Part shown: positions 3,738 to 38,192 of the stretch, piece by piece | Layout of the letters: each line of letters opens with the position of its first letter | Position numbering within the stretch: the stretch's first letter is position 1 | Source of the DNA: a virus | Lineage: Duplodnaviria > Caudoviricetes | Virus record (IMG/VR): IMGVR_UViG_3300028048_003161 | Length of the DNA: 64,000 nucleotides | Direction: 5' to 3' (one strand) | Notes under the pieces: generated by a model | What the model saw: the letters and a program-made list of their open reading frames with translations, nothing else | Databases searched by the model: none | Told to the model about the DNA's origin: nothing | Program-made: the position numbers and the translations under genes

Positions 3738-5894
3738 ATGGTTGATGCAGTATATATGTATATTAGGGGCTTATGGTTTAATACACAGGTCAATAGGTAT
3801 GTAAGAATTAGACCTTCTGATATCAAGTCTAACAATACAGAAGAGAATAACAAGCAGGTTGAGGAATATATTGACAGGATTGATGAGTTACTTGACCTTC
3901 ATCATAGAGTTAAGATGCTTGGTAAAATAGTTTGTATGCTCGGTCAGGTTCCTCTTGTAGACTTGGATGAAGAGGGAGATAACATCCCTAATTTGACCTT
4001 TAACCTTGTAGCTTGCATAGAATCAACATCAGACAGATTGACACATCATACAAGAAATATAAGAAGGGCATTAAAGAAATATGGATTAGACAGTACAGAT
4101 GGAGAAATCAGCACTTGTATAAAAGACAGTATTGATTGGATGGAAAATAAGCAAAACAAACAAATTGAACTTGCATTGAATTTCATCAAGGATCTTGGAC
4201 TACAGGGAGTGCTGGACACTATTAAAGAGACAAGTGGTTTAGGTTTAATAGAGGATATGCAGGCTACTATTGGACGAGACAGTAGATGGATTAAGTCATA
4301 CATGACTAAAATGAGAAATATTGCATATGATAATAACATTCCTTGGATCAAACTTCATGGTGATTTAGTAGAGTATCAGCATAAGAAGCAAAAGGAACTT
4401 GACTATAATTTGGACAGTGCATTACATAAAGGGATTAAGCAGTTCAAAGAGGCAAAGAAAGCATTAAGAATATCTGAAAGCAACATTAAACATATGATTG
4501 CTAACAACTACAATGAGCCTAAAGAGGCATTTAGTGACCTTTCAAATTATAGTGAGGACATTGTGGCGGAGAGTAAGTACAATGTTTATTTGATACAGGG
4601 TTTAGATCAGCAAAATCAGTTGAGATTTGTCAGCTCATCATTTGGAAAAGAGACAAGACGTTACAGAGATTATATGATGAACAATGGTGATGGGCATACA
4701 ACACCTGAAAAGGCAGAGAAGTTCAGATATGGAAAGCAGTTTACTGCAACTGATAGTTTTGATGCTAAACTCTTCTTAACAAGAGAGGACGCAGAGATGT
4801 TTATCTTTGAGCAGGAGTTAGAAATGAATGACTTCTTTAAGACAGAAGAGGTCCTTGAAATAAATGTGAAAGTCTTGTATGATAGATACAATAACAAGTA
4901 TAAGGAAATGAGATACAGTGATCCTACTAACCTCGGCTTAATGAAAGATGGGATACTTGTAGGGAATATTGATGGTGCAGCTAGTGATATCTATGATTTG
5001 CTTTCAAAATGGGCTGGTACAGCTGATCGAGTAAAAGTAGAGAATAAAATAAAAGAAGCAATAACTGAACAAGTTGACAAATCAATTAACATAGGATTTG
5101 ATAATTTTAACATTGAGAAGTTTATCAACAAACATGGAGTAGGAAAGGTAAGCTTCAAATTAAATGGGTACTCATTGGTTTATGCTGACAGGACAGCAGA
5201 TGGAACATTTAACATTTATGTCAAGCATTTCACAATTGGCAGGGTTAAAGACAAGAAGGGCTCAGAGAGAATGTTGATTGACATACTTGATAGTGGAGAG
5301 ATCAATGAGGGAAATGTTTGGGACTACTTGGTAGATACTAAAGCATATTCAGAAAGAGCAATTAGACATAACTTGACTAGTTTGTACGAGGGATATAGTA
5401 GATGGAGCATCCTTGTAAAAACATCTGTACATGGGGCAGACATTACAGACGTAGCAGTAAATTGTGAGATTGCATTAAAGAAAGTCAAACAGACACTGAA
5501 ATTGTTAGATAGTACATATGAAAGTTTAACAAATAAGGAAAAGAGTGGTACCATTGAGGAAAAAGGATTGGTCAGTAGGATAAACAGGGCGAAAGCAGAG
5601 ACAGGAAAAGCATACATAGTGGGAAGATGCAACATCAGTACAGTTAAACCTGGAGACATTGAGAAAATTGGCAGAGGAACAGGAATTACATTGTATTCAG
5701 AGGACGATGTATTTTCATCATCAATGAACAAAATAAAAGTGTTTAGTAGCTTCGCTGATGCAAAGAAAACCACAGATCAAGTTAGAGGTAAGCATTGGGA
5801 TAAGAGGTTTATCATGGAGGTTGGACATGAGAAAGAGTGCAAGATCACAGGTAAAATTGGGTTTAGCATAGAGAAAAAGGAACAATTAGCATAG
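3738..5894 (+). CDS. Hypothetical protein (718 aa)
   Basis: Long ORF with AGGAGG RBS; no motif recognised. Confidence 0.75.
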   Translation: MVDAVYMYIRGLWFNTQVNRYVRIRPSDIKSNNTEENNKQVEEYIDRIDELLDLHHRVKMLGKIVCMLGQVPLVDLDEEGDNIPNLTFNLVACIESTSDRLTHHTRNIRRALKKYGLDSTDGEISTCIKDSIDWMENKQNKQIELALNFIKDLGLQGVLDTIKETSGLGLIEDMQATIGRDSRWIKSYMTKMRNIAYDNNIPWIKLHGDLVEYQHKKQKELDYNLDSALHKGIKQFKEAKKALRISESNIKHMIANNYNEPKEAFSDLSNYSEDIVAESKYNVYLIQGLDQQNQLRFVSSSFGKETRRYRDYMMNNGDGHTTPEKAEKFRYGKQFTATDSFDAKLFLTREDAEMFIFEQELEMNDFFKTEEVLEINVKVLYDRYNNKYKEMRYSDPTNLGLMKDGILVGNIDGAASDIYDLLSKWAGTADRVKVENKIKEAITEQVDKSINIGFDNFNIEKFINKHGVGKVSFKLNGYSLVYADRTADGTFNIYVKHFTIGRVKDKKGSERMLIDILDSGEINEGNVWDYLVDTKAYSERAIRHNLTSLYEGYSRWSILVKTSVHGADITDVAVNCEIALKKVKQTLKLLDSTYESLTNKEKSGTIEEKGLVSRINRAKAETGKAYIVGRCNISTVKPGDIEKIGRGTGITLYSEDDVFSSSMNKIKVFSSFADAKKTTDQVRGKHWDKRFIMEVGHEKECKITGKIGFSIEKKEQLA

Positions 5895-5984
5895 ACGAGA
5901 AAGAGCATGCAGAGGCATAACAAGGGCTAAGCATTAAAGAAGGCAAGCTTCAAGATTATACAAAAGAATAGGGCATATGACAAT

Positions 5985-6025
5985 AAAGCAAGCACACCAT
6001 ATATTAAGTAGGATGTGCTTGTTTT
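5985..6025 (+). terminator. Probable intrinsic terminator
   Basis: aagcaagcaca...tgtgcttgtttt inverted repeat downstream of ORF 3738-5894. Confidence 0.55.
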
Positions 6026-6204
6026 AGATCATAGGGTACAAATAAAAATATGTTTTTATTAAAATTTAAAATAAAAAGAGAAGGCAGAGGGTTTTAATGA
6101 ACATGCATAGCAAAAAGAAAGCAGCATCATAGAGAAATTGAATGGTACAGATAGTACAAAGAGATATACACTTGGGGGATAATGTTTAGCATAGGAATAT
6201 GTGC

Positions 6205-6765
6205 TGGGGGATGCATAGAGAAATAAAAAGCTGATGCATCACTAAATTTAAGGTGGTGCATCGCTAGTTTTGAGTGATGCATAGAAATATGAAATGTTTA
6301 GCACTCAAATGGATGTATGCATAGGAGAAGTGGGAAACAATGATGCATCTATGATTTTTGGGGGATACACTGACAAATTGAGAGGGGATACATCGCTTAA
6401 TAAAACAAAGATGCATAGAAAAACAGGAAAAATTGATGCACCTCTAAAAAGAAGGATACACCTATGGTAGAGGGATGATGCATAGCAACATGAAGGGTAA
6501 TGCATCACTTGTTTCAGGGGGATTCATTGGTGGAAAAAGGGTGATGCACAGCTATGAAAAGTTGATACATAGTGAACTAAATGGTTTAATCACCTCTATA
6601 AAAGTTGATGCATAGCAAATTAAAAGAGTGATGCACCACTATAAAAGTTATATCATCGCTATAAAAATTGATATCATAGGACAAAAAGAGATGATGCATC
6701 ACTATGAAAAGCAGATGCCTCACTATTTAAGAAGATAATGCATCACTATGAAAATTGCATCATAT
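6205..6765. repeat. Non-coding phased array of ~25 degenerate GATGCA(T/C) motifs at ~22 bp period
   Basis: Cores at about 6210, 6233, 6255, 6276, 6316, 6342, 6364, 6387, 6410, 6435, 6455, 6477, 6499, 6521, 6543, 6564, 6607, 6630, 6693, 6714, 6737; best-conserved unit TGATGCATCACTATRAAAA. Confidence 0.85.
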
Positions 6766-6820
6766 ACAAAATCAATATATTTAGCATACAATGATAATTG
6801 AGTCATAGGAGGATAAAAAT

Positions 6821-7315
6821 ATGAACATTAAGATTTATACAGATGGAGCATGTTCAGGAAACCCTGGACCTGGTGGTTGGGGTTGTGTATTACAGGCATT
6901 TTTACCTGATGGACAGCTCTTTCAAAGAGAGCACAGTGGTGGATATAGGATGACTACAAACAATAGGATGGAGCTAGCAGCTATAATCAATGGTTTGACT
7001 TACATCAATGGAGTAGGTCATGATGTAGAAATCATTTCAGACAGTGGCTATGTTTGTAATGCATTTAACGAGGGATGGATAGATAATTGGAGAAGAAACA
7101 ATTGGACAAAGGGCAAAAATGGTAGACTACCTAATGCTGATATGTGGCGGACACTATGGAATTTAGTGACCATGCAGAGAAATGTTAAGTTTACATTGGT
7201 AAAAGGACATGAGAACACAGAGTTGAACAATAGATGTGATAAGATGGCAGTAGCAGCAAGAAAAGATACAGCTCATTTGGAATTGGACTTTGGATATGAA
7301 CAGGGACTAGCATAG
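6821..7315 (+). CDS. rnhA: Ribonuclease HI
   Basis: IYTDGACSGNPGPGGWG, TTNNRMEL, SDSGYV, VKGH, NNRCDKMA. Confidence 0.95.
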   Translation: MNIKIYTDGACSGNPGPGGWGCVLQAFLPDGQLFQREHSGGYRMTTNNRMELAAIINGLTYINGVGHDVEIISDSGYVCNAFNEGWIDNWRRNNWTKGKNGRLPNADMWRTLWNLVTMQRNVKFTLVKGHENTELNNRCDKMAVAARKDTAHLELDFGYEQGLA

Positions 7316-7330
7316 AGGTCAAGTTGGTTT

Positions 7331-8155
7331 ATGCAGAATAAAAATAAAATCAAGCAGGAACTAAATGAAAAGCTTTACAAAATGTATAATGCTAAGCATT
7401 GGCAAGATTACAATGGTTCAATTGAGAAGTATGAATGCACTATCAACAAAGAGCATGGACTTTTCAAAGAAAGAGTAAGCAAACAAAGTAAAGATCACAT
7501 CATGGAGCAAGTTGCATATGAGATAGCAAATGTACTTGGGGTCAGATGTTGTAAGGCATCATGCAGGAAAGTAAATAGTTTATATGGAGCATTTTCAAGG
7601 TTTGAGGTACAAGATATAAGAAATATAATACCTTATGAAAGTATAATTGGTACAGTTGAATTAAGTGCAGATGAACTTATGAAAAGGACAATAGTACTTA
7701 CAAAAGGTAGGTATAACAGTTTTGTTTTGGAGTTATATCAGTTTATAATATTTGACTACATCTTAGGACAGATGGACAGACACATGGAGAACTTATCTGT
7801 ATACAGGAATAATAAAAGACAGACAATATGGTATCCTTTGTATGACAATGGGTTATGTTGTTTTTCTACATTTGGTAATGATGCAGCTGTGAAATATATG
7901 GACATGGGGTATTTCTCATCAAGACTAGGATTTAGTGAGGAAATACTTCAGTGTTTAGTAGAGTATAGGCATTTGATTTATCCTGGTGACCTTAGAGAAA
8001 TAGTGAGGTATCATCTACTAAATGAAAATGTACTTGGTGAAATAATAGATAAGTCTAACAAATACAATCAACTTACATTAGAAAGAAGAAACTGTACAAT
8101 TAAGTTTATTATGAATAACATCAGAGAAATTGATAGGCTCAATATGACAGCATAA
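7331..8155 (+). CDS. HipA/CtkA-like Ser/Thr kinase
   Basis: LFKE, EQVAYEIA, FDYILGQMDRHMENL catalytic loop, PLYDNG. Confidence 0.8.
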   Translation: MQNKNKIKQELNEKLYKMYNAKHWQDYNGSIEKYECTINKEHGLFKERVSKQSKDHIMEQVAYEIANVLGVRCCKASCRKVNSLYGAFSRFEVQDIRNIIPYESIIGTVELSADELMKRTIVLTKGRYNSFVLELYQFIIFDYILGQMDRHMENLSVYRNNKRQTIWYPLYDNGLCCFSTFGNDAAVKYMDMGYFSSRLGFSEEILQCLVEYRHLIYPGDLREIVRYHLLNENVLGEIIDKSNKYNQLTLERRNCTIKFIMNNIREIDRLNMTA

Positions 8156-8192
8156 ATCATAGAAATTGTACAATTAAAATAAAGGAGAGGCA

Positions 8193-8774
8193 ATGGGAGT
8201 TTATTATAAGAGCAAGTTCACAGATTTTGCAGCATCTGAACCTCCTTACACAGACACAGTTTATTGTAAGGATGAGAATAGAACAGTTTGTATAATACAT
8301 ATAGATGAAAATTGGAACATGTACGGAGAAGTAATTGACCCTTACGATTTGTTTATTAGTCCTGTAAAACCTATATTTGGACCATTAAATCAAGAGCAGT
8401 GTGAGCGTATGTTGATGAAAGATGCACCTAAATCTAACAGGGTGGATGTAATGAGAGAACTTGATATGGAGTTTATGGACTATGCAAAATTGATGTATTG
8501 CACTAGGTTAATAAATCTCATTAACAATTATTGGCTAGCATGGTCAGAGGATGATAAGGTTGAGGACTATCATCCTAGGTTTAATAAAGAGATCATGAAG
8601 GAAAGAGAGGCAAGCATGATAAAACTTGACCCTGAGCCTGAAGATTTGGAACCTAGCACACCTTATTGGGTGCCTGACTGGAGTAAGAGTATGGAAAACT
8701 TTGATAGACCAGAGATCAACAGTGAGATTGATACATCAGACATGGAATTTGGTAGTTCAAGGTTTGACACATAA
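8193..8774 (+). CDS. Hypothetical protein resembling the N-terminal/partner domain of Firmicutes HipA-like kinases
   Basis: ..P.SNR.DV..ELDM...D...L..TR....NNYWL pattern; directly downstream of the kinase. Confidence 0.5.
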   Translation: MGVYYKSKFTDFAASEPPYTDTVYCKDENRTVCIIHIDENWNMYGEVIDPYDLFISPVKPIFGPLNQEQCERMLMKDAPKSNRVDVMRELDMEFMDYAKLMYCTRLINLINNYWLAWSEDDKVEDYHPRFNKEIMKEREASMIKLDPEPEDLEPSTPYWVPDWSKSMENFDRPEINSEIDTSDMEFGSSRFDT

Positions 8775-8804
8775 TACATCAAGAAGAAAAGGTAAACACT
8801 AGAA

Positions 8805-9065
8805 ATGGAACTATTTTGCATTGTATATTATATTTGCAGCTATATTGCAGGAATACCTGCTATAGTAAAATTGATTAAGACAAAGAAAAGTAATGACTAT
8901 TCATTAGCAGAGGCAATTATAACAATAGTTGGAACAACTTCATGGACAATATACATTTTCAGTACAAGTCAAAGCATATGGGTTTATGTGGGCACAATAC
9001 TAGATCAAGTTATTGTACTTGTCTGGGATGGATTAATCATTAAATATTTCAAGAAAGAGCAGTAA
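8805..9065 (+). CDS. PQ-loop / SemiSWEET-like small membrane protein
   Basis: 86 aa, three hydrophobic segments, IPAIVKLIKTKKSNDYSL...SWTIY matches the SemiSWEET pattern (PQ replaced by PA). Confidence 0.7.
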   Translation: MELFCIVYYICSYIAGIPAIVKLIKTKKSNDYSLAEAIITIVGTTSWTIYIFSTSQSIWVYVGTILDQVIVLVWDGLIIKYFKKEQ

Positions 9066-9076
9066 CAAATGAGGGA

Positions 9077-10465
9077 ATGAACATGAGTAGAGCAAGGACA
9101 CAGTATAAACTTGTTGGAAGATACTTAAATGGTAATGACACTAAATACTATGGTTTAGTATCAGAGGATAATAAACAGGTTAAATATACAAGTGAGCAAA
9201 TGGCATTTGCTGTAGGTAGAGAACAAGTAATAAATGTTAAAGCACAGTTATATAATGGCAAAGTACTGTTTAGAGGAACAGACTGTGACATTAGAAATTT
9301 ACCTACTATACAATTGAATAATAATGTAGTAACTAAGGTAAGTAATAGTAAGAAAAAAGAAATAACTAAAACTACAATGACAAAAGAACTATATATGATA
9401 ATTTGTAGTAACAAAAGTATAGGTATACTCGAAGATTACTTATTTTCATGCAAGTACAATGATGAAAATAACTCTATGTATATTACTGAACAGTACAAGC
9501 ATTCATATGGAAGTGATTTAACACAATATTTCTTTGGTGATGACGAAAAAGTACAAAGGTTTATACTGACAGATGATAATGATTATTTCTATTTAAAATA
9601 TGCAGACACTAATGAAACACTAGTAAAGACTAAAGATAAAATGCTAATTCTAAATTTATTAAATATAACAGACAAGCAAATAAAATCGGTATCAACACTA
9701 GAAGATTCATTGGATTTTATAAAACAGTCTTTTTCAGACTTCTGTGGGTCAGCAAATTATGCAGTTATTACATCTGCAATGCGAGGAGAAGATTATCAAA
9801 GCTTTAGCTTTGATACAGCATTACAGTTAATGGAAATATGTATAATGGAAATGAAGTATGTAAATATTACGAAGAATAAAAGTTTAGACAGTACATATAA
9901 GAGCTACATATTTAGAGGACAAGGAATACAGAAAGGAAGTATTGAGGACCATTCATTTAAGAGTACTACAACAAGTTTAAATGTTGCAAAAGAATATGGA
10001 AAAAATGGCATTATACTTGCAATTAAAAATGTAAAGATACGTGATATTATAAATGTACAAAGCGTAGCAGGATATGATAAAGATTTTATTTACTACGAAC
10101 ATGAATTATTATTAAGGGACTTTAGTATTTTACATATTGAAAATCAAATAGGTGTAATATCAAATATTCCTGTATATTCAGCTAGACTAGAAATGCCTGA
10201 CTACACTACTAGATTAAAGATGATACTAAAACAATTCACTGATGCATATGGAAAAAATGTACAGTTCGAAATCATTAAGCTTATACTAGGTAATCTAAAA
10301 TCACTATGTAACATAACTATAAATTGGGATGGTCTAGAATTAGAGGCACTAAATGGTAATTTTGTGAATATAGCATTCACAAATGATAAAAACACAATTA
10401 TAATAGATGATATAACATATAATAATTATGATGTGATAAATGTATTAAGAAACAAACTAATGTAA
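9077..10465 (+). CDS. Putative R-S-E type ADP-ribosyltransferase fused to an element-specific N-terminal domain
   Basis: YIFRG...FKSTT...VAKEYG...YEHELLL (R, STT, ExE motifs); N-terminal ~80 aa resembles ORFs 12139 and 16207. Confidence 0.65.
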   Translation: MNMSRARTQYKLVGRYLNGNDTKYYGLVSEDNKQVKYTSEQMAFAVGREQVINVKAQLYNGKVLFRGTDCDIRNLPTIQLNNNVVTKVSNSKKKEITKTTMTKELYMIICSNKSIGILEDYLFSCKYNDENNSMYITEQYKHSYGSDLTQYFFGDDEKVQRFILTDDNDYFYLKYADTNETLVKTKDKMLILNLLNITDKQIKSVSTLEDSLDFIKQSFSDFCGSANYAVITSAMRGEDYQSFSFDTALQLMEICIMEMKYVNITKNKSLDSTYKSYIFRGQGIQKGSIEDHSFKSTTTSLNVAKEYGKNGIILAIKNVKIRDIINVQSVAGYDKDFIYYEHELLLRDFSILHIENQIGVISNIPVYSARLEMPDYTTRLKMILKQFTDAYGKNVQFEIIKLILGNLKSLCNITINWDGLELEALNGNFVNIAFTNDKNTIIIDDITYNNYDVINVLRNKLM

Positions 10466-10602
10466 ACAAGTAATTGTATAAAGAAACATTACAAGGATTC
10501 ACTTTTAGATTAAATCAGCAGGGCATAAAAAGGAGAGGCATAGCAAGTAAGGCATAGTTAAGTAGAATTAGACATTAAACATTATGAAAGGAGCACTAGC
10601 AG

Positions 10603-11169
10603 ATGATAGTTTATCATGGTAGTAACAGCAACTTCAGGAAGTTAAAAATAAGCAAGTCCTTGGTTAAGCATACTAGTACATTGGGTAATGAGGGGTTAGG
10701 AATTTATTTCAGTACAGATCCAAGTGTAGCTAATTCATATGGAAAATACTTATATACATTGGAGATAAATGACAGAGCCTTTGTTGATATGAGAAAGAAA
10801 ACAAATTGTACAAAATACATTAGGAAAATAATAGGAGCAGTTTACAAGGAAACAGGTGTCAATATAGGTATGTATTTTGACTTTCAATCTACTATAGACA
10901 GACTCTATTATGGTGGACAAGCAGTGTTTTCAGTAGGGCATGACATAGCTGAAGTGCTAGATAACACAGATGAATTTTATGATAGTGGTTTAAGTCAAAC
11001 AAAGAAAAGCAATGTTTATAGAGTATTAAGACATATGGACAAGGAATGTCCTAAAGCTTATATGTTTAATTATCACATTAAGAACATTGGAGTTATAAAG
11101 GATGTCTCTGAAGAATATGTGAGAATCATTAAAAGAGAAAACATAGGCTTTGGAGTAATAAGTGGGTAA
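10603..11169 (+). CDS. ART-PolyVal-like (H-Y type) ADP-ribosyltransferase-domain protein
   Basis: VYHGS..F.........G.EGLGIYFSTD..VA.SYG. Confidence 0.65.
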   Translation: MIVYHGSNSNFRKLKISKSLVKHTSTLGNEGLGIYFSTDPSVANSYGKYLYTLEINDRAFVDMRKKTNCTKYIRKIIGAVYKETGVNIGMYFDFQSTIDRLYYGGQAVFSVGHDIAEVLDNTDEFYDSGLSQTKKSNVYRVLRHMDKECPKAYMFNYHIKNIGVIKDVSEEYVRIIKRENIGFGVISG

Positions 11170-11233
11170 CAATTAGACATGAAAAGAGGCATTTGGAAAT
11201 CAGAAAGGCACATGTGAGAAAGAGGTATTTGAC

Positions 11234-12112
11234 ATGAAAATTTTAGTTGTAGTCACTAACATATTTGTGTTTCTCGAGGAAACATCAGTGATTAAACAGT
11301 TAGGTTTAGCAAGGAACAGGGTTTATTATACAATCAATCCTAATTATGTTAAGTCAAGAACAACTAAAAACAACTTAATACATGATATTAACAGACTTGG
11401 TCTTGGTTTAGAATATATAACATGGGGCAGAATAAATGAGAGTACCTGGGATGTAATGTTATGTTCATCATATGCAGGTGATGGTACATATGAGAAATTG
11501 ATTAATACAAGAGTAAAAGTGAATGTACTCGTAGAGGATGGTAGCTATGACTACTTCACAGAGAATGTGTCGCATCCTGATTTTGTAAGGGGAAAGAATT
11601 TGTTTTTGTTTAGACCTCAAAACAGTGTGGCTGGTAGCATTTACAGATCAGTAAGACCTATAAAAATTGATGCTGATATGCAAAGAAGAATTATGAGTTT
11701 GTACAGTGATCAATTGAATGTCTTTAATAGATTACCTAATGGGTCATGTATTTTGTTTACTAGTCCATTGGAATCAGACTTTGGTATCATGGATCATGAG
11801 AAACAGGCAGTTGAGTTTATGGAAAAGAACTTTAGAAATAGAGTAGTAATACTTAAGAAACATCCAAGAGACTTAAGTGAGTACAAGTCAAGGCATCTTG
11901 ACATTGTGGAATGTAGCACTAATGTCCCTGGTCAGATACTTGATATTTTGTTTAATGGACCTAAGGTATTTACTTTCCCTTCAACAATATGTTTTATGAG
12001 TGGTAAGGTAAATGATATGCTTTTATTAAGAATGAAAACACATAATAAAAATTACAATGACTTCTATGAAAAAGTAGGTAGACTAAATTGTTTTAGGACA
12101 GTCATGATTTAG
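11234..12112 (+). CDS. Sialyltransferase-like GT-B glycosyltransferase
   Basis: VEDG, KKHPR and FPST motifs in the order seen in bacterial sialyl/polysialyltransferases. Confidence 0.6.
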   Translation: MKILVVVTNIFVFLEETSVIKQLGLARNRVYYTINPNYVKSRTTKNNLIHDINRLGLGLEYITWGRINESTWDVMLCSSYAGDGTYEKLINTRVKVNVLVEDGSYDYFTENVSHPDFVRGKNLFLFRPQNSVAGSIYRSVRPIKIDADMQRRIMSLYSDQLNVFNRLPNGSCILFTSPLESDFGIMDHEKQAVEFMEKNFRNRVVILKKHPRDLSEYKSRHLDIVECSTNVPGQILDILFNGPKVFTFPSTICFMSGKVNDMLLLRMKTHNKNYNDFYEKVGRLNCFRTVMI

Positions 12113-12138
12113 AAAAAGTAAGCATGGAGGCTTAGACA

Positions 12139-12564
12139 ATGGGCATATTTGAAATGTTTAGTAGCAGAAAAGATTACAAGAGAGAAGAAGAGATTGAACG
12201 TAGTAGGTCTGGAATAATACAAGAGGTTGAGAGAGGAAACCTTAGTATGAAAGACCTAGACAGGAGACAAAAGTTGTGCAACAAGATTGTTACTGTAGAA
12301 AAGACAGGTAAGATTGGTCAATGTCATATAGTTGCAGTAGTGATTAGCATGGCAGATGGTGACGACTACATAGTAGAGGATTGTACAGGTAAGAGGTTTA
12401 TTGTTGATAAGGCATCAACTTTTGAATTAGCAAAGAATAAAAAGATTGAAAACATTAAGTTTGTGAAAGATCACATTCAAGGTTATAATGGTTTTAGGTT
12501 GGGTTCATTACCTCATGTCTATTATAAAGAGGCATTGGAAATGTTAAAACAACATAAAAAATAA
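12139..12564 (+). CDS. Hypothetical protein with element-specific repeated domain
   Basis: C-terminal half (IVAV...Y...G..F.V.K....LA....I.NIK...RL.SLP) resembles the N-termini of ORFs 9077 and 16207. Confidence 0.65.
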   Translation: MGIFEMFSSRKDYKREEEIERSRSGIIQEVERGNLSMKDLDRRQKLCNKIVTVEKTGKIGQCHIVAVVISMADGDDYIVEDCTGKRFIVDKASTFELAKNKKIENIKFVKDHIQGYNGFRLGSLPHVYYKEALEMLKQHKK

Positions 12565-12600
12565 AAGAAAGGATAATGAAACAAAAGGAGGAAAGACATA

Positions 12601-13662
12601 GTGAAGAAAAGGCTAGTAATTTTAGGAGTGATTTGTACAATGTTGTTTAGTTGTACAGCTTGTTCAGATTCAAGTTCAACATTGAATGGAGCAGTTGATG
12701 CAAGTGTAAGTAGTGGTTCAAATGCATTTGGTGTTGCTGAGAAAAGTGAAAGCAGTGATAATTACGAATATGACAGTGGAGATAGTGATTATGACAGCAA
12801 TAGTGATGAGAGCGACACAGGTGATAATGAGAACAACAGCAAGACTGAAGAGGCAAACATTGACACAAAGGCTAAAAACATTAATGATAAACTAGTATAC
12901 AGTTATGATATTGAGTATACAGTTTATGGAGAAAAGAATAAGAACAAAGCAATTAAGAAAGTAGATGATGCAATTGAAAATTACAATGGCTTCATTGAAA
13001 ATTCAACTAGTTCAGAGTATAATTGCAGAGTGACAGTAAGAATCCCTAGTGAATACAGAGATAAGTTTGTTGAGGCATTAACAAACAAGTTAGATAAAGA
13101 GAATTATAGGATAAACAAGCAGGTTGAGAATTTGAAGTCAACATATGCTGATTACAAGAGACAGTATGAGATTGCTAAATCAAATTATGAAGCATACAGT
13201 AAATTGTTAAAGCAGGCAGATGAATTAAAAGATGTGCTTGAGATAACTAATTATGTGAACACTGCTAAACAAACAATGGACGATATGGAAAGACAGATGC
13301 AGGATATTGATACTGATGTAGCATATTCAACTATTGTGGTAGACATTAACTTTAATAGTGATGACATTAGGAGGTCAGAAGATGAGCCATTGATAAATCA
13401 AGCAATACATGCCTTTAAAGATGGAATAAGATCATTCTTTTTATTGATTGTTAATTTATTGTTATTCATTATTGGTAATCTGTTATACTTATTAGTATTT
13501 GGTTTAATCATTTGGTTTATTGTGGCTAAACACAAGAAGAAAAAGAGACAGAAACAAGAAAAGAATTCAGCAGTGGAAAATAAAGAAAGCACAGAGAATG
13601 AGAAAGCAAATACATCTGAAGTTGAAACAATTACAGTGGATATGAATGAGAACAGTAAATAA
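12601..13662 (+). CDS. DUF4349-like lipoprotein with C-terminal TM helix
   Basis: Lipobox-like CTAC, VTVRIPS, coiled coil, VAYSTIVV, C-terminal hydrophobic helix and basic tail. Confidence 0.75.
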   Translation: MKKRLVILGVICTMLFSCTACSDSSSTLNGAVDASVSSGSNAFGVAEKSESSDNYEYDSGDSDYDSNSDESDTGDNENNSKTEEANIDTKAKNINDKLVYSYDIEYTVYGEKNKNKAIKKVDDAIENYNGFIENSTSSEYNCRVTVRIPSEYRDKFVEALTNKLDKENYRINKQVENLKSTYADYKRQYEIAKSNYEAYSKLLKQADELKDVLEITNYVNTAKQTMDDMERQMQDIDTDVAYSTIVVDINFNSDDIRRSEDEPLINQAIHAFKDGIRSFFLLIVNLLLFIIGNLLYLLVFGLIIWFIVAKHKKKKRQKQEKNSAVENKESTENEKANTSEVETITVDMNENSK

Positions 13663-13681
13663 TTAAATACAACATATAAGT

Positions 13682-13720
13682 AAAAGACATATACATTTGG
13701 TTTAGTGTATATGTCTTTTT
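13682..13720 (+). terminator. Intrinsic terminator
   Basis: aaaagacatatac...gtatatgtcttttt hairpin with U-tract. Confidence 0.75.
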
Positions 13721-13723
13721 ATA

Positions 13724-13752
13724 TTGAAAAATAGGGTAATAAGTGTTATAAT
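13724..13752 (+). promoter_or_regulatory. SigA-type promoter for the NADAR gene
   Basis: TTGAAA-17bp-TATAAT with extended TG. Confidence 0.7.
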
Positions 13753-13783
13753 ATAAGTAAAGAGTTAGGAAAGGAGATAAGAC

Positions 13784-14263
13784 ATGATCAAGTTCAGTCG
13801 GGCGCATGGTAAATACGCGTGTTTCAGTAATTTTTATCCTTGTGAGATTTTGTTCGGTGGTATGCACTTCAAGAACAGTGAAGCAGCTTGGCAGGCATTA
13901 AAGACACTTGATGAGAATGAGAGACTTTCATTTCAGAATTTAGGACCTTCTGAAGCAAAGAAAAAGGGAAGAAGTGTTAAGTTGAGAGAAGATTGGGAAC
14001 TTGTTAAGTACAAGTTGATGGTTGCAGTCTGCTTGGCTAAGTTTAGGCAAAATCCTGATTTAGGAAAGATTCTGCTTGAGACAGGCGATGAGGAGATTCA
14101 GGAGAACACTACAGGTTGGCATGACAACATCTGGGGTCATTGTGAGTGTCCTAAGTGCAGAGATAAGAGTTACACTAACTTACTTGGTAAAGCACTCATG
14201 GAGGTCAGAGACTTTCTGAAAACAATGGATGACATGGGAAAAGGTTGGAAAGTAGAAGACTAA
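13784..14263 (+). CDS. NADAR family protein (YbiA-like)
   Basis: FSNFY, SEAAWQA, AKKKGR, DWELVK, KFRQN, WHDNIWG, NLLGKALMEVR. Confidence 0.9.
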   Translation: MIKFSRAHGKYACFSNFYPCEILFGGMHFKNSEAAWQALKTLDENERLSFQNLGPSEAKKKGRSVKLREDWELVKYKLMVAVCLAKFRQNPDLGKILLETGDEEIQENTTGWHDNIWGHCECPKCRDKSYTNLLGKALMEVRDFLKTMDDMGKGWKVED

Positions 14264-14329
14264 ACAGTAGAGAAAAGGAATAGGACAGTTAAAATGAAAA
14301 ACAAGACATGAAGAAAGAACAAACTTGTC

Positions 14330-14950
14330 ATGGTAGTTGCAATTTGTTTAATGATGTGTACACTGGTTGGTGGTTGCGGTATCCTTGATTCAAAGGTAAA
14401 TGACATTAAAGGTAAGCTTGTAGGAAATGACTACAACATTTACTTTTATGATAACTTTGGTAACAAGACAGGGTTTGTGTCAGGTGAAAAAGTAGGTATG
14501 ACGGGTAATCCGATTAAGGTGCAGAGTGTATCTGATAGCGGAGACATCATTACTACATATCAGCTCTCATCAATTATTACACTTAACATTGATGGTCATG
14601 AACTGGAGACTTGTGGAGATACAATGATCTGTGCTCAGAAAGGACTTGAGCCTGATGTAGATTTTAAGTCATCTGATATTATCAGTGAGTCATCAGGAAA
14701 ATTAACAGACAATGCTGCAATTTCAGGGTTTGTCAATAAGTACAAGAATATGTTTGGCAAGTCACGTGTAATTGTGGTTAAGTCACAGTTAGGACAACCT
14801 ATTACAGCATATTCAGGAGAAAAGGTCTATTGGGAGGCTCCTGAGGACCTTCCTAAAATGACAAAGCTTATGATTGATGGTAAGGCTTTATATGTGCATA
14901 GAGATAACTTTCAGATTATAGATAAAGGCTTATTGAAAAATGCAGAATAA
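14330..14950 (+). CDS. DUF5052-like lipoprotein; upstream in-frame start at 14294 interrupted by TGA
   Basis: Lipobox VGGC, KSQLGQPI.AYSG, LPKMTKLMIDGKALY; ATG 14294 gives MKNKT*RKNKLVMVV. Confidence 0.7.
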   Translation: MVVAICLMMCTLVGGCGILDSKVNDIKGKLVGNDYNIYFYDNFGNKTGFVSGEKVGMTGNPIKVQSVSDSGDIITTYQLSSIITLNIDGHELETCGDTMICAQKGLEPDVDFKSSDIISESSGKLTDNAAISGFVNKYKNMFGKSRVIVVKSQLGQPITAYSGEKVYWEAPEDLPKMTKLMIDGKALYVHRDNFQIIDKGLLKNAE

Positions 14951-15066
14951 GCACTAAGGCAGAGCACCCTGCAGTGAAAACTGTGGGGTGTAATTTTGTT
15001 TATAGCTGTGGCATTGATAAAAATTGGGTATGCAGTATAAGATGTGCATTGGTAATTTTAGGTATA

Positions 15067-15095
15067 TTGACAATTTATTAAATTTGTGATATAAT
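15067..15095 (+). promoter_or_regulatory. Consensus SigA promoter
   Basis: TTGACA-17bp-TATAAT with TG extension. Confidence 0.8.
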
Positions 15096-15273
15096 ATGGT
15101 AAATGAAAGACCTTATGTAAGAAAGAAAGTTGACTAGCCACAAAGTAAGAAAATACATAATTTTTGAGTGACATGCATATGTCAAAAAATTAGATATGCA
15201 GTGGGGTCAAAATTGGGTACGACATAGGAGTTAAAAAATTAAAAATTTTTAATAGGTTGGAGGTACATATGAT

Positions 15274-15603
15274 ATGCTAGTGGACATTAAGGAAGTGAGG
15301 GATGGACTAAGGATAAGAGGGGCAACACCTTGGAAATCTTTTGACTATGGTGTTTGTGATGACTACACTTAGGTACTGGAGAAATACAAAGAGGAAATTA
15401 AGAGTAACAAGAAATATGTGGTTGTGTTACAGGTCATTCATAAACAAGGGAAATCTAGTTTAGATGGGTGGAAATGGAGTAAGCATGGTCCATATATTGG
15501 TAAGCAGAAACAAGAAGCAGAGTACTTGTTTAATGAACCTTTAATCACAGAGGTTTATGAATATAGCATTTTTGAATTAGGAGGACATGAAAATGAAAAG
15601 TAA
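15274..15603 (+). pseudogene. Hypothetical gene interrupted by an in-frame TAG at 15370
   Basis: GGAGG then ATG 15274; MLVDIKEVRDGLRIRGATPWKSFDYGVCDDYT*VLEKYKEE... continues in frame into ORF 15418-15603. Confidence 0.55.
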
Positions 15604-15952
15604 AAGCAATGTAGCAGGAAGAATGAAAAGTAAAAGCAATGTAGCAGGAAGAATGGACAGCAAGATTGTTGCAATGAACAACAGAAGAAAAGTAACTGAC
15701 ATGAGCGAAGAGAATAAGAGACAGGCATGGAAATGGATTGGTATTTTTGTAGGTGTTATGTTACTTTTGATTGTAGGTGGTTACTTTGCAGTTCCTGCAA
15801 TCAGACAGGCAGAAATAGGTGTTTGGCAGGCATTTATGAGAAAGTCAATTGGAGACAAAGTTGACTGCATCTTGATTGTTGTTTGTGCATTTGCATTTTT
15901 AATTTCAATCAATAGGACATTAAGAAAGGCAAGGCTCAACAGAGGGAAATAA
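15587..15952 (+). CDS. Small membrane protein
   Basis: Two hydrophobic helices; GGAGG RBS. Confidence 0.7.
   Translation: MKMKSKSNVAGRMKSKSNVAGRMDSKIVAMNNRRKVTDMSEENKRQAWKWIGIFVGVMLLLIVGGYFAVPAIRQAEIGVWQAFMRKSIGDKVDCILIVVCAFAFLISINRTLRKARLNRGK
15593..15652 (+). repeat. Perfect 30-nt tandem duplication (MKSKSNVAGR x2)
   Basis: atgaaaagtaaaagcaatgtagcaggaaga repeated twice. Confidence 0.9.
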
Positions 15953-16011
15953 AGGCAAGCAATAGAAAAATAAAGAGATTGCAATTAAAATAAAATAATA
16001 ACATTATTAAG

Positions 16012-16050
16012 AAACTAGTATACACAGCAATTTGGCGTATACTAGTTTTT
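16012..16050 (+). terminator. Intrinsic terminator
   Basis: aaactagtatac...gtatactagttttt. Confidence 0.75.
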
Positions 16051-16206
16051 CAATTTTATTGTAACTATAGGTGTACATGTGTATAAACTGGGCATACATT
16101 ATGGTTTATCTAAAGGAATATTAAATATAGGATTGACCCTCCTGTTGGCATAAAGTGGAAACAGAAATAAGTTTTTATTTATTTTTAATTTATGGGAGGT
16201 ATCTTT

Positions 16207-16935
16207 ATGTATATACTTGTTGCACGTATATTTGACAAGAGGGAGCTTGTTGGATATAAGATGAAAGACATGACAAATGGGGAGGCTCATCTTGTCACAA
16301 AAGGGGATGCATGTAGATTAGCAGCTAATGAGCAAATAGTTGATGTCAAGTGCATTCAGTCAAAATTAGGTTCAGATAGTTTAGTAAGTACTGGCAGTAC
16401 TAGATTGAGGGATTTGCCTAGGATTGATGCAAAGGACATTAAGAAAAAGTCAGTATCATCTAGTAAGTTCAAATACAGTGATAGGATAGCGTGTGTGATT
16501 AGGGATACCTGTAATAATAGAAAAATGAACACAGTGTATACAGAATCACACATTAAGGAAATTATTAAACAGGATGTAAATAGGGGAGTCATTGATATAA
16601 GTGAAAAGAACTCATTAAGTATGGGTATACTCATTAGAAAATGTGGGAGCAATGAGTATATGGTGCTTAATGAAAATGATTATGACCTGCCTTTTCATAG
16701 AATAGCAGATGATAAGGATAAAATAAAGCAAGTTGAGACATTGGGTAGCCATGATCAGCAGTTATTAAGTAAAGGTGAACTTGTATTATTGAGTTCTAAT
16801 CCTAAAATAAATTGTATATTCAGTAATGCACTTGTGATAGGTCCTACTAAATTTAGTAGATACACAGGTGGTTTAGAGGATTGGCTGAATCAGTTTAGTA
16901 TAGTATTTGGAAATAATGACGGACAGGATATATAA
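16207..16935 (+). CDS. Hypothetical protein with element-specific N-terminal domain
   Basis: GGAGGT RBS before ATG 16207; N-terminus similar to ORFs 9077 and 12139. Confidence 0.7.
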   Translation: MYILVARIFDKRELVGYKMKDMTNGEAHLVTKGDACRLAANEQIVDVKCIQSKLGSDSLVSTGSTRLRDLPRIDAKDIKKKSVSSSKFKYSDRIACVIRDTCNNRKMNTVYTESHIKEIIKQDVNRGVIDISEKNSLSMGILIRKCGSNEYMVLNENDYDLPFHRIADDKDKIKQVETLGSHDQQLLSKGELVLLSSNPKINCIFSNALVIGPTKFSRYTGGLEDWLNQFSIVFGNNDGQDI

Positions 16936-17061
16936 TATTACATAAACTAGACAAGTTATGAAAAGAGTAGTACAGTGGAAAATAAAATGAACATTAGATG
17001 ATTAAGCTTTACTTATAATAATTTAAGTAGGGCTTAATTTTTTAGATTTTGGGCATCAGTA

Positions 17062-17090
17062 TTGACAAAATAGGGTTTATGTGGTAATAT
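17062..17090 (+). promoter_or_regulatory. SigA-type promoter for the PC4-like gene
   Basis: TTGACA-17bp-TAATAT with TG extension. Confidence 0.6.
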
Positions 17091-17180
17091 AATATTTGTA
17101 GTTAAGAAGTAAATATGTAGTACGTAGTCTTAATTACTCTACAAAATTTAGTGCGTGAGAAACGCAAGGAGGACAGTGCT

Positions 17181-17507
17181 ATGGCATTTGAAAACGAAAT
17201 CAATGAACAGGTGGCTCAGATCGACAAGAATAATCGTGGAGATTACATGGTAGTTTCTAAGATCACCAACAAGAACACAGGAACAGTGAGTGCAGACATT
17301 AGACAGTTTTACACTGACGAAAATGGAAAGGTAGCTCCTACTCGAAAGGGTACCCGTGTCAACACAGAAATCTTACCTGACGTGATTAAAGCATTACTTC
17401 AGATTCTGGAGCCTGATGAACTGGAGGACATTGGAGAGTTTGTCGAAAACATGGGTGCTGATGAACTTGAGGATCCTGAGGACACTACAGAAGAGGAAGA
17501 GGCATAA
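17181..17507 (+). CDS. PC4/YdbC-family single-stranded DNA-binding protein
   Basis: ADIRQFYTD..G.V.PTRKG signature of the PC4 fold; acidic SSB-like C-tail; AGGAGG RBS. Confidence 0.8.
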   Translation: MAFENEINEQVAQIDKNNRGDYMVVSKITNKNTGTVSADIRQFYTDENGKVAPTRKGTRVNTEILPDVIKALLQILEPDELEDIGEFVENMGADELEDPEDTTEEEEA

Positions 17508-17780
17508 GCCTCAATGTAGAAATAGGAGATGCAGGTCATTAAATCTTAAATTGACATTGTGTATGATTGAAATTACATAAAACAAGGTAATCATTTATGG
17601 TTGTGATTGTCTTGGTATAAACCGACTAACAACATATGTGATTGAGATTGTAGACATTGGAAATTTTAAGGTTTATCCTTTAAGAAGAAAAATTGAATAT
17701 TGTGGACTTCTGACATAACTAGGAAAGCAGAGTTGGTGACTGATTGAACAGTTTAAGCAGAGGTCAAAGCTGCGGAAAAA

Positions 17781-32336: not shown

Positions 32337-32357
32337 TTATTAACCAGTGAGTAAAGA

Positions 32358-32397
32358 AAATAGACCTAGTATTCAGAAATGGGTACTAGGTCTATTT
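32358..32397 (+). terminator. Intrinsic terminator ending the tad region
   Basis: aaatagacctagtattc...gggtactaggtctattt. Confidence 0.75.
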
Positions 32398-32556
32398 GCA
32401 TGTAAATATAATAAGTAGTTATTTATTAAGTTGTTTGAAGTGACACATGAACATGTAATTGAATAAATTAAAAATGTGTAATTTATTATTGCGTTGTTTC
32501 AGACATCTAAATATAATAAATGTAAAAAATTATTTATTTAATGGAGGTAAATTAAA

Positions 32557-33909
32557 ATGAGTTTTGTAGCAGCTGATTTAGGTGCAAGCAGTACACGATA
32601 CACTAGTGACAGTGGAAAAATCGATGTGTTGCCTAATAACATGAAAACACTGCCTGATATGAATGTATCACTTATCATTCCTGACTCTGGAGACATTGAG
32701 AGTTGTTTAGAGGCTCAGATTACAAGAGATGGGCAGGATGCAATGGGATTCTTCCCTACAAATGTACTCATGGGAATCATGGCAGAGAAACATCGTGGAA
32801 TTGACGAAAGACCTTCAGTCAATACACACAAGCATAAGCAGAAAATCAACTATGTTTCAGCTATTATGGCATGTGCAGTAAGTAAACTCAAGCATCCTGA
32901 GTTAGCTGAGCATGTAGACCTTTACTTAGCTACACCTCCTATTGAGGTTCATGCAGCTAAGGAGGCTTTTGCACAGGTACTTTGTGGAACTTACACAGTT
33001 TATTTTCCAAAGTATAACAATGGAGTAAGCGTGACATTTACTGTTGATTCAGTAAAATGTTATGCAGAGTCATATATGGCTTCAGCAGCTTTCTTCTTCA
33101 ATATGAATGGTACACCTAAGGAGGAGACAAGACAGTACTTAAGTGGTACAGTGCTTCACCTTGATATTGGTGCATCTACATCAGATCTGTCCATTACAAA
33201 GAATGGTAAGTTCCTTGATAAGTCAGGACAGACATATCGTATTGGAGGTAATGTGGCACGTGACAACCTGATTGACCAGATCTGTCAGAAATTTGCTATT
33301 GATTTACCATTAGCAGATGCTGAAAAGGTCATGGCAGAGGGTAGGATGCAACAGGGTATGGGATTTGTAGACGTAAGTGACCTTGTAATGGTTGCTAAGA
33401 GAGAATTAGCTCAGCAGTTAAATGAGTATCTTGATACATACTTCAAGAGGATTCAGATCCCTATTCAGATGGTAAATGCCATTGTTGTTTCTGGTGGTGG
33501 ATCAATGCAGAGTCAGTATGCAACACCTGAAGGAGAGATGGTTAAGACATCTGAACCTTTAAGTTACTTTGTAACTCAGGAGTTACAGACATGGTCACCT
33601 GGAACAGCAGTAATTCCTTTTGGAGACAATGCTAGGTTTGCAAATGTCACAGGTTTGTTTATTCGCGCAAAGATTGATGAAATCAAGCGTAAACAGCAGG
33701 CAGCAGTTGCATCTCAGCCTGTAACACCTACAGTTCAAAGCGTTGCTCAGGGCATTGGACAGACACAGCAGGTACAGCAGGTAGTAAATAATGGGGCAGT
33801 TGCAGGAGCAGGTCAGACAGTAGGTCAGACAACACCAACATATACTGGAGCACCTGGACAGGTAATGCAGGATAGACAGCCTGGACAGGAAGGACAGATT
33901 ACACAGTAA
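32557..33909 (+). CDS. Actin-like ATPase of the ParM/StbA (Alp) family
   Basis: Phosphate-1 ADLGASSTR, connect AES, phosphate-2 LDIGASTSD, adenosine VSGGGS; Gln-rich C-tail. Confidence 0.85.
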   Translation: MSFVAADLGASSTRYTSDSGKIDVLPNNMKTLPDMNVSLIIPDSGDIESCLEAQITRDGQDAMGFFPTNVLMGIMAEKHRGIDERPSVNTHKHKQKINYVSAIMACAVSKLKHPELAEHVDLYLATPPIEVHAAKEAFAQVLCGTYTVYFPKYNNGVSVTFTVDSVKCYAESYMASAAFFFNMNGTPKEETRQYLSGTVLHLDIGASTSDLSITKNGKFLDKSGQTYRIGGNVARDNLIDQICQKFAIDLPLADAEKVMAEGRMQQGMGFVDVSDLVMVAKRELAQQLNEYLDTYFKRIQIPIQMVNAIVVSGGGSMQSQYATPEGEMVKTSEPLSYFVTQELQTWSPGTAVIPFGDNARFANVTGLFIRAKIDEIKRKQQAAVASQPVTPTVQSVAQGIGQTQQVQQVVNNGAVAGAGQTVGQTTPTYTGAPGQVMQDRQPGQEGQITQ

Positions 33910-37355: not shown

Positions 37356-38192
37356 ATGGGTACACGTAGTATTAGATTTGGTTCACAGCTGACATTTGAT
37401 GAGGACAAAGAGAAAGATATTATTGACACTATTGATACATTGAATTCATCTCATAAAATGGGTCAGTTCATGTCTAATTTGATTAGACTTGCATTTGATA
37501 ATCCTGAAATACTTAGGGTTGGTGCAGATGGTTTAGAGAAGCAGGCAATGCTTCAGCAGGTGGAAAGCAGCGGTATGTCAGTTAACAGACAGCGGTTTAT
37601 GTCTGAAGTTACATCAGAGATTTCTGATATGAAAAAGAAAGTTGATGAGGTGTACAATATGGTGTTTAAGTTGTATACATTGGCTTTAATGAATAAGCAT
37701 TTGGAAATTGAAAATAAATCAGACAATTCATTAAGGGCAACATTTGTATTAGAAAGACAGCTTAGACAATTACAAGATTCACTTGGTGTAAATATAAGTG
37801 ATGCAGTGTATGAGTCTGATAAGGTCGCTGACGTTCATGTAAGAGCAGAGGATTGTTTAGAGTATATCATTGAGACATACGATGGAATCATTGATGAAAT
37901 GAAACAGGCAATTGCAGTAGGACAGCAGCCACAGGTAGTTGTTCAGCAGGCAGTAGGAAATACAGGAGTTGCTGGAAACAATATGGTAGTTGGCAGTACA
38001 GAGGCAATTAGATCAGTAGAAACTGTAGGAAATACAGGGGCAGTTGAGACACAAGCAGTTGTGAATGATGCAAGCACAGCAAATACAAGTACAAGCACAG
38101 CAGTTCAAACCGAAACACCACCTGAAGAGGAAATAATTGACTTTGGGGATACAGATGATATCTTGGATGCAATGAACTTCTTTGATGATTAA
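37356..38192 (+). CDS. Hypothetical protein, candidate ParR-like adaptor
   Basis: N-terminal strand plus two short helices (RHH-like by pattern only), coiled coil, low-complexity acidic tail; third gene after the actin homolog. Confidence 0.45.
   Translation: MGTRSIRFGSQLTFDEDKEKDIIDTIDTLNSSHKMGQFMSNLIRLAFDNPEILRVGADGLEKQAMLQQVESSGMSVNRQRFMSEVTSEISDMKKKVDEVYNMVFKLYTLALMNKHLEIENKSDNSLRATFVLERQLRQLQDSLGVNISDAVYESDKVADVHVRAEDCLEYIIETYDGIIDEMKQAIAVGQQPQVVVQQAVGNTGVAGNNMVVGSTEAIRSVETVGNTGAVETQAVVNDASTANTSTSTAVQTETPPEEEIIDFGDTDDILDAMNFFDD

Follow-up and report, generated by a model that had tools for sequence, protein, structure and literature searches.

The largest gene-free gap in the 64,000-nt stretch of viral DNA analysed here (the window) holds an array of 33 slots for a short direct repeat, spaced about two helical turns apart, and an array of the same word occupies the same place in a related element. 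The array is highly non-random. We put at roughly 80% the probability that it is a selected, helically phased docking array for a protein.

The window is 35% GC and shows a strong strand skew (C 12%, G 23%); all of its 62 credible genes except two small ORFs are carried by the + strand. The gap measures 926 bp (5895-6820), in agreement with the ~925 bp given in a preliminary description of this DNA, and lies between an uncharacterized 718-aa ORF and the RNase HI gene. The neighbourhood encodes McrB, McrC, a GT2 glycosyltransferase, the 718-aa protein, RNase HI, a HipA-like kinase and SemiSWEET. The McrB-like AAA_5 ATPase and McrC-like genes form a pair at 145-2741, upstream of the glycosyltransferase gene. 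Within the gap, a terminator-like hairpin is followed by a very AT-rich stretch, then by an unbroken series of short units and finally by the RNase HI ribosome binding site (RBS; Table 1). The AT-rich leader is 93% identical to the related element (L002, see below) over 6035-6074, which exceeds the identity of the array itself, and could constitute a promoter region or a site of unwinding. When 50-mers of the window are ordered by AT content it comes seventh, and hence is not unique.

Table 1. Features in and around the gap, and the candidate binder gene (window coordinates)
Feature	Position	Strand	Remarks
Terminator-like hairpin, then T run	5985..6027	+	Closes upstream ORF 3738-5894; RNA fold of 5960-6100 dominated by the hairpin (z = -4.3)
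AT-rich leader immediately 5′ of the array	6028..6100	.	12% GC over 6028-6077; conserved in L002
Array, 5′ part	6102..6209	+	Two clear A-type units (6102, 6124) and three decayed slots; 72-80% conserved in L002
Array, main body	6210..6756	+	25 slots, 22 with a clear core; PWM, spacing, TRF and phase statistics
Array, 3′ end	6757..6820	+	Three A-type units in decay; that at 6800, the last, overlaps the RNase HI RBS (AGGAGG)
RNase HI gene (rnhA)	6821..7315	+	First gene 3′ of the array in both elements; Pfam RNase_H 1.4e-33, PHROG 531 9e-48
Candidate binder (putative), adaptor gene of the actin partition module	37356..38192	+	N-terminal strand-helix-helix, acidic C-terminal helix

Units and phase of the array

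Scanning with a PWM derived from the units identified 26 non-overlapping clear units (cut-off, at least 8.7 bits), every one of them on the + strand and separated by 20-25 bp, or by multiples of this across decayed units. At a stricter level (at least 12 bits), 21 of the 22 + strand matches in the whole 64 kb fall inside the array. A phase-locked walk from 6102 to 6800 counts 33 slots, on average 21.8 bp apart; in 7 of the 33 the core is decayed (e.g., TTAGCATAGG). The six core positions cited in the preliminary description (6455, 6477, 6499, 6521, 6543 and 6564) all correspond to unit starts in the PWM scan. The spacing of ~22 bp proposed there also stands, and the ~25 cores compare with 26 clear units and 33 slots. 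The interval 6205-6765 locates the array properly but falls short of its full extent, from about 6102 as far as the RBS (about 6812).

The exact word GATGCA occurs 11 times in 6100-6800. With the core relaxed to [GA]AT[GA]CA, the 701 bp contain 17 copies, where the frequency in the remainder of the window predicts 2.9 (Poisson P about 1e-8). Units consist of a core, (G)ATGCA(T), a tail of one of two types (TAG.. or YCACTAT) and, after one more turn, an A-tract. A-type units conform to GATGCATAG and B-type units to GATGCAYCACTAT(A/G)AAAG, the two types being irregularly mixed. The palindromic core of the preliminary description, GATGCATC, is present but complete in only three units (6233, 6342 and 6693), so that the invariant part is AT.CA rather than the palindrome.

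Core positions are coherent at a period of 22.0 bp (R = 0.90). None of 2000 random placements, each allowed its own best period, scored as high (maximum 0.81). The autocorrelation suggested earlier as a check is weak when carried out base by base; this reflects the 20-25 bp jitter in unit spacing, the periodicity residing in the positions of the motif. No 11-bp half-period was found in the array by autocorrelation. Tracts of at least four A reach, in the array, 2.3 times their density in the window. They too show the 22-bp phase (R = 0.72), with their centres about 12 bp, or approximately one helical turn, from the core. Superimposed on the basic period are local higher-order repeats of 43 and 63 bp, both within 6535-6711 (TRF periods 43, 63 and 21-23).

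Several other identities were considered and rejected. The units are too short and too degenerate for a CRISPR array, as noted early on: they span 22 bp in total and lack spacers, as opposed to near-identical repeats of 24-48 bp with unique spacers. A search of the whole window against the covariance models of Rfam 15 at gathering score gave no match, and a tRNA search found none. A sigma-70 promoter in each unit was dismissed since the -35-like TTGATG and -10-like TATAAA words are wrongly spaced, as judged by eye, and consensus scans showed nothing conserved between the elements. The likeness of B units to T7-type promoters (CACTATA) amounts to a 6-7 bp match that the A units lack. It was treated as chance and is further discounted by the absence from the window of any gene of the size of a single-subunit RNA polymerase. 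A CsrA-type sponge would call for GGA words, which precede only about eight units and are not conserved in L002. Finally, restriction-site avoidance or a decoy function does not fit the data, as ATGCAT is not avoided outside the array (37 copies versus about 19 expected from base composition).

The array in a related gut element

Sequence collections were scanned with a pattern of two adjacent units. Metagenome contigs yielded one true relative (L002), a stretch of a 464,735-bp contig from human gut (ORTT01000003, ENA). Pattern matches in six other loci (L001, L003 and L004-L007) were discarded as single chance matches in unrelated DNA. Searches of phages and plasmids, by DNA and by protein, and of genome contigs revealed no relatives, nor did searches of viral contigs with ORF 3738, the adaptor (see below) and the array pattern. 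A giant-virus MAG contig (L029), included on account of its RNase H, has at 1903-2322 a tandem array of about 22 units of 15 bp (CTTAGGGGATCGTTT), overlaid by higher-order periods of 30, 36, 66 and 102 bp; these units are unrelated to the array studied here.

L002 is syntenic with window positions 6732-17717, at 84-95% DNA identity. It contains 19 units of the same word at the same place (R = 0.88 at 22.25 bp), and the last unit adjoins the rnhA RBS in both elements. The preliminary description had stated that absence of the array from related elements would count against its reading; the array is present in L002. The two arrays differ by gain or loss of whole units: a block of about five, one unit each way and about six at the 3′ end. 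In aligned units, the A, T, C and A of the core are 94-100% identical and the linkers about 70-75%, the core figure being somewhat favoured by the alignment because repeated cores assist any aligner. For comparison, the third codon positions of four downstream genes are 85-94% identical. Linkers thus change faster than neutral sites do, with core word and phase both maintained. Furthermore, tails switch between A and B type from one element to the other while the core stays. Judged from this sequence comparison with a single related locus, the core word is under selection.

These data bear on the simplest alternative, namely that the array is a neutral or selfish tandem repeat, driven by slippage and having no binding partner, in a gap that tolerates it. 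Turnover by whole units and the local higher-order duplications are what a satellite would show, and tandem duplication alone would yield direct orientation and a constant period. Yet most units are old and diverged, and still their four core positions are 94-100% identical while the linkers have fallen below the synonymous-site identity of neighbouring genes. In addition, phase is held over all 33 slots despite the 20-25 bp jitter, and the position of the array is kept in L002 although the adjoining ORF 3738 is absent. A satellite is quite an unlikely explanation in our estimate. The findings agree instead with the general idea of a nucleoprotein scaffold advanced in the preliminary description: the core is conserved, the phase is kept through whole-unit insertions and deletions, the A-tracts are phased, and the array is found at the same site in L002.

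ORF 3738 (3738-5894), the 718-aa ORF upstream of the gap, has no Pfam or PHROG match; its sole homologues are 90-96% identical, one of them on a 549,993-bp contig. In L002 the gene is missing and the array lies directly 3′ of the glycosyltransferase gene. ORF 3738 is thus an accessory gene, inserted between that gene and the array. The ORF, named earlier as a potential binder, is also removed from consideration as the partner of the array, since L002 has the array without the gene.

Replication and transcription as possible roles

Iterons are the closest counterpart to the array in period. Known sets comprise 7 x 22 bp in the R6K gamma origin, 4 x 22 bp in pPS10, 17-bp units in RK2 and 19-bp units in P1 oriR/incA. 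The array shares with such sets the tandem direct repeats running one way (+ strand only), the helical phasing at about two turns (mean 21.8 bp) and the AT-rich neighbour, and cooperative binding to the same face would be expected. Plasmid iterons measure 17-22 bp and are bound cooperatively only if helically in phase, cooperativity being lost upon displacement by half a turn; origins reviewed carry two to seven of them (PMC4980987). The array differs in having 33 units, in lacking an adjacent rep gene, DnaA boxes and a skew switch, and in a conserved core of only about 5-7 bp followed by two alternative tails.

The preliminary description had pointed to a replication origin on the grounds that RNase HI is encoded next door, and had proposed GC skew as a sign of it. 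This did not hold up. GC skew ranges from +0.19 to +0.41 in every 2-kb bin of the 64-kb window with no change of sign. Together with the same gene orientation on both sides, this indicates that the array is not at a bidirectional origin, a test that would miss unidirectional replication. No DnaA boxes within one mismatch are present in 5895-6820, which led us to reject a DnaA-box origin, and a scan of 30 window ORFs gave no Rep-type initiator, nor does any flank the array. These negative results, and a number of units far above the two to seven of reviewed origins, make a classical origin unlikely. As to the RNase HI gene, homologues (34-48% identity) occur on 25 IMG/VR phage contigs that have no such array. 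A general link between RNase H and the array was therefore rejected, the RNase H neighbourhood being specific to this element family.

A replication initiator could still bind the array as an iteron-type set. Such a set might belong to an origin or, as its size makes more plausible, serve as an accessory array for copy control, titrating the initiator or handcuffing origins in the manner of P1 incA and the extra RctB sites of Vibrio chromosome 2. Direct repeats in one direction at 21.8-22.0 bp match classical iterons, and a conserved AT-rich stretch adjoins them. The conserved part of the B unit (about 13 bp, in two parts) would suit a two-domain winged-helix Rep, and the element has replication genes, for RNase HI and a 5′-3′ exonuclease. 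Against this stand the same missing Rep-type gene, DnaA boxes and skew or strand switch, along with the excess of units, and we regard the initiator reading as doubtful. A further alternative is that the array serves solely in transcriptional control, as an operator or silencer that takes no part in replication or partition: a repressor would coat the 700 bp and so govern the operon for RNase HI, the HipA-like kinase and SemiSWEET. The array does reach the rnhA RBS in both elements and has a terminator-like hairpin upstream. Consensus scans revealed no convincing sigma-70 promoter inside the array common to both elements and no consistent one between the array and rnhA, suggesting that transcription of the rnhA operon starts in or before the array and probably crosses it. 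Moreover, intergenic DNA elsewhere carries GCATAG boxes at about 2.7 times the density of coding DNA, and ORF 10603 is preceded by three. But 33 sites far exceed the needs of any operator, and the products of the operon give no obvious reason for control this heavy; a purely regulatory array is, in our opinion, unlikely.

The same orientation of the array with all genes, and its probable transcription into rnhA, could also mean that the array acts as RNA: a purine-rich leader with about 30 AUGCA words, serving as a protein sponge or forming an R-loop processed by RNase HI, for example in replication priming. RNase HI is the first downstream gene, and the sense RNA folds better than shuffled sequences (z = -3.5), although the self-complementary ATGCAT cores alone would give such a signal. 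There is no Rfam match, the strand composition inside the array is the same as in the rest of the element, and what is conserved between elements is not the GGA-type words but the DNA-like features, i.e., the two-turn phase and the phased A-tracts. A role as RNA thus appears very unlikely.

Three boxes of the A-type core, GGCATA(G), are found 14-15 bp apart at 10522-10558, in the 137 bp of non-coding DNA ahead of the ART-like ORF 10603. They may represent a small operator for the protein that binds the array.

A candidate maintenance site

An actin gene at 32557 lies 25.7 kb downstream from the array. Neither a GATGCA box nor a tandem repeat array is present in the 220-bp gap that precedes the actin operon (32337-32556). 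This gap does contain a terminator with a perfect 14-bp stem, a promoter (TTGCGT-17-TATAAT) judged good by eye and two copies of CAT(G/C)TAAATATAATAA, 105 bp apart. Lack of a local repeat array suggests that, if the operon encodes a partition system, its centromere is elsewhere, and the orphan array is a natural candidate. Of the 30 window ORFs scanned, none looked like a ParB/SopB-type gene.

The protein that might link the two is the product of ORF 37356, which has 34 relatives, several of them on contigs of 450-506 kb. Alignment of these shows a conserved N-terminus and a conserved acidic motif (DFG..D....FF) at the C-terminus, separated by a disordered linker of about 75 residues. A structure model of low confidence (pLDDT 49) places a strand-helix-helix at residues 2-48 and a short helix at the C-terminus. 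Sequence searches of Pfam and PDB returned no match; a language-model search gave a weak lead (score 0.77) to PF10784 (R1 ParR/StbB). As modelled, the layout is ParR-like without a family match, and an RHH-type adaptor is a plausible assignment.

In the type I and II centromeres used for comparison, repeat units measure 6-12 bp, or 20 bp when made of two half-sites. R1 parC has 10 x 11 bp and pSK41 tandem 20-bp repeats of 10-bp halves; sopC of the F plasmid has 12 x 43 bp. The present array recalls parC in its tandem direct repeats, which would be expected to be coated by an RHH protein into a superhelical scaffold, and in the presence on the element of an actin-type module with an adaptor whose N-terminus is predicted to be RHH-like. 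It departs from parC in lying 25.7 kb from the actin operon, in having about three to eight times the units of R1 and pSK41, in lacking a half-site period of 10-11 bp, and in a candidate adaptor that matches no sequence family. The likeness to sopC lies in a long one-direction tandem array of several hundred bp with a short palindrome in its units, and here too there are 43-bp repeats, of higher order; the basic period, on the other hand, is 22 bp, and the palindrome is seldom complete. The array is unusual for its size among iteron- or centromere-like arrays.

Centromeres of types II and III are built of direct repeats in tandem, and those of type II are located directly upstream of the partition operon (PMC5016525). 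The proteins that coat type II and III sites are small and of RHH or winged-helix type, and the sites of both types precede their own operon. The distance to the actin gene weakens the centromere reading accordingly, as do the absence of an 11-bp half-period and the fact that a 22-bp direct-repeat period is that of classical iterons. Function as the centromere of the actin system is possible, without the position that defines such sites. A different precedent is provided by pSM19035, in which separate parS arrays overlap the promoters of maintenance genes and act both as centromere and as operator (PMC5016525). In this plasmid parS1-3, bound by the omega repressor (type Ib), each overlap the control region of a maintenance-related gene; the present array may be comparable, in that it abuts the rnhA RBS in two elements. 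It differs in that parS sites are made of 7-10 contiguous 7-bp heptads as compared to 33 units of 22 bp.

As the likeliest of the readings, we tentatively propose that the array is a centromere-like maintenance site of a plasmid-like element of ~0.5 Mb, doubling as operator of the rnhA operon. One sequence-specific DNA-binding protein, from the element or from its host, would read AT(G)CA in the major groove every two helical turns, and the phased A-tract one turn further on would help to bend the DNA or narrow it. Roughly 26-33 protomers aligned on nearly one face would build up an unbroken nucleoprotein filament over about 700 bp. This filament might provide the handle for an actin-type partition machine, through the RHH-like adaptor encoded by ORF 37356. 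As it would end on the rnhA RBS, it might also act as operator or roadblock for the operon of RNase HI and the HipA-like kinase, much as maintenance genes of pSM19035 are controlled from its dispersed parS arrays. It is also conceivable, if rather improbable, that several dispersed arrays make up a "regional centromere" around the replication zone, coated by the RHH adaptor and pulled by the actin filament together with a giant coiled-coil tether.

Should the array be the centromere of the actin system, type II partition would be able to work with centromeres that are remote, very long and multiple. A regional centromere, if real, would be the largest by far and the first multi-array centromere described for actin-type bacterial partition. 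If the array is instead a sink for an initiator, iteron-type copy control would extend to replicons of half a megabase. Under either the centromere or the initiator reading, the array would define the DNA word of a DNA-binding protein. To our knowledge, neither an origin nor a centromere has been mapped on the giant extrachromosomal elements of uncultured gut Firmicutes. With 33 sites that are conserved and cleanly in phase, the array offers a concrete handle on such elements, one that can be put to test at the bench.
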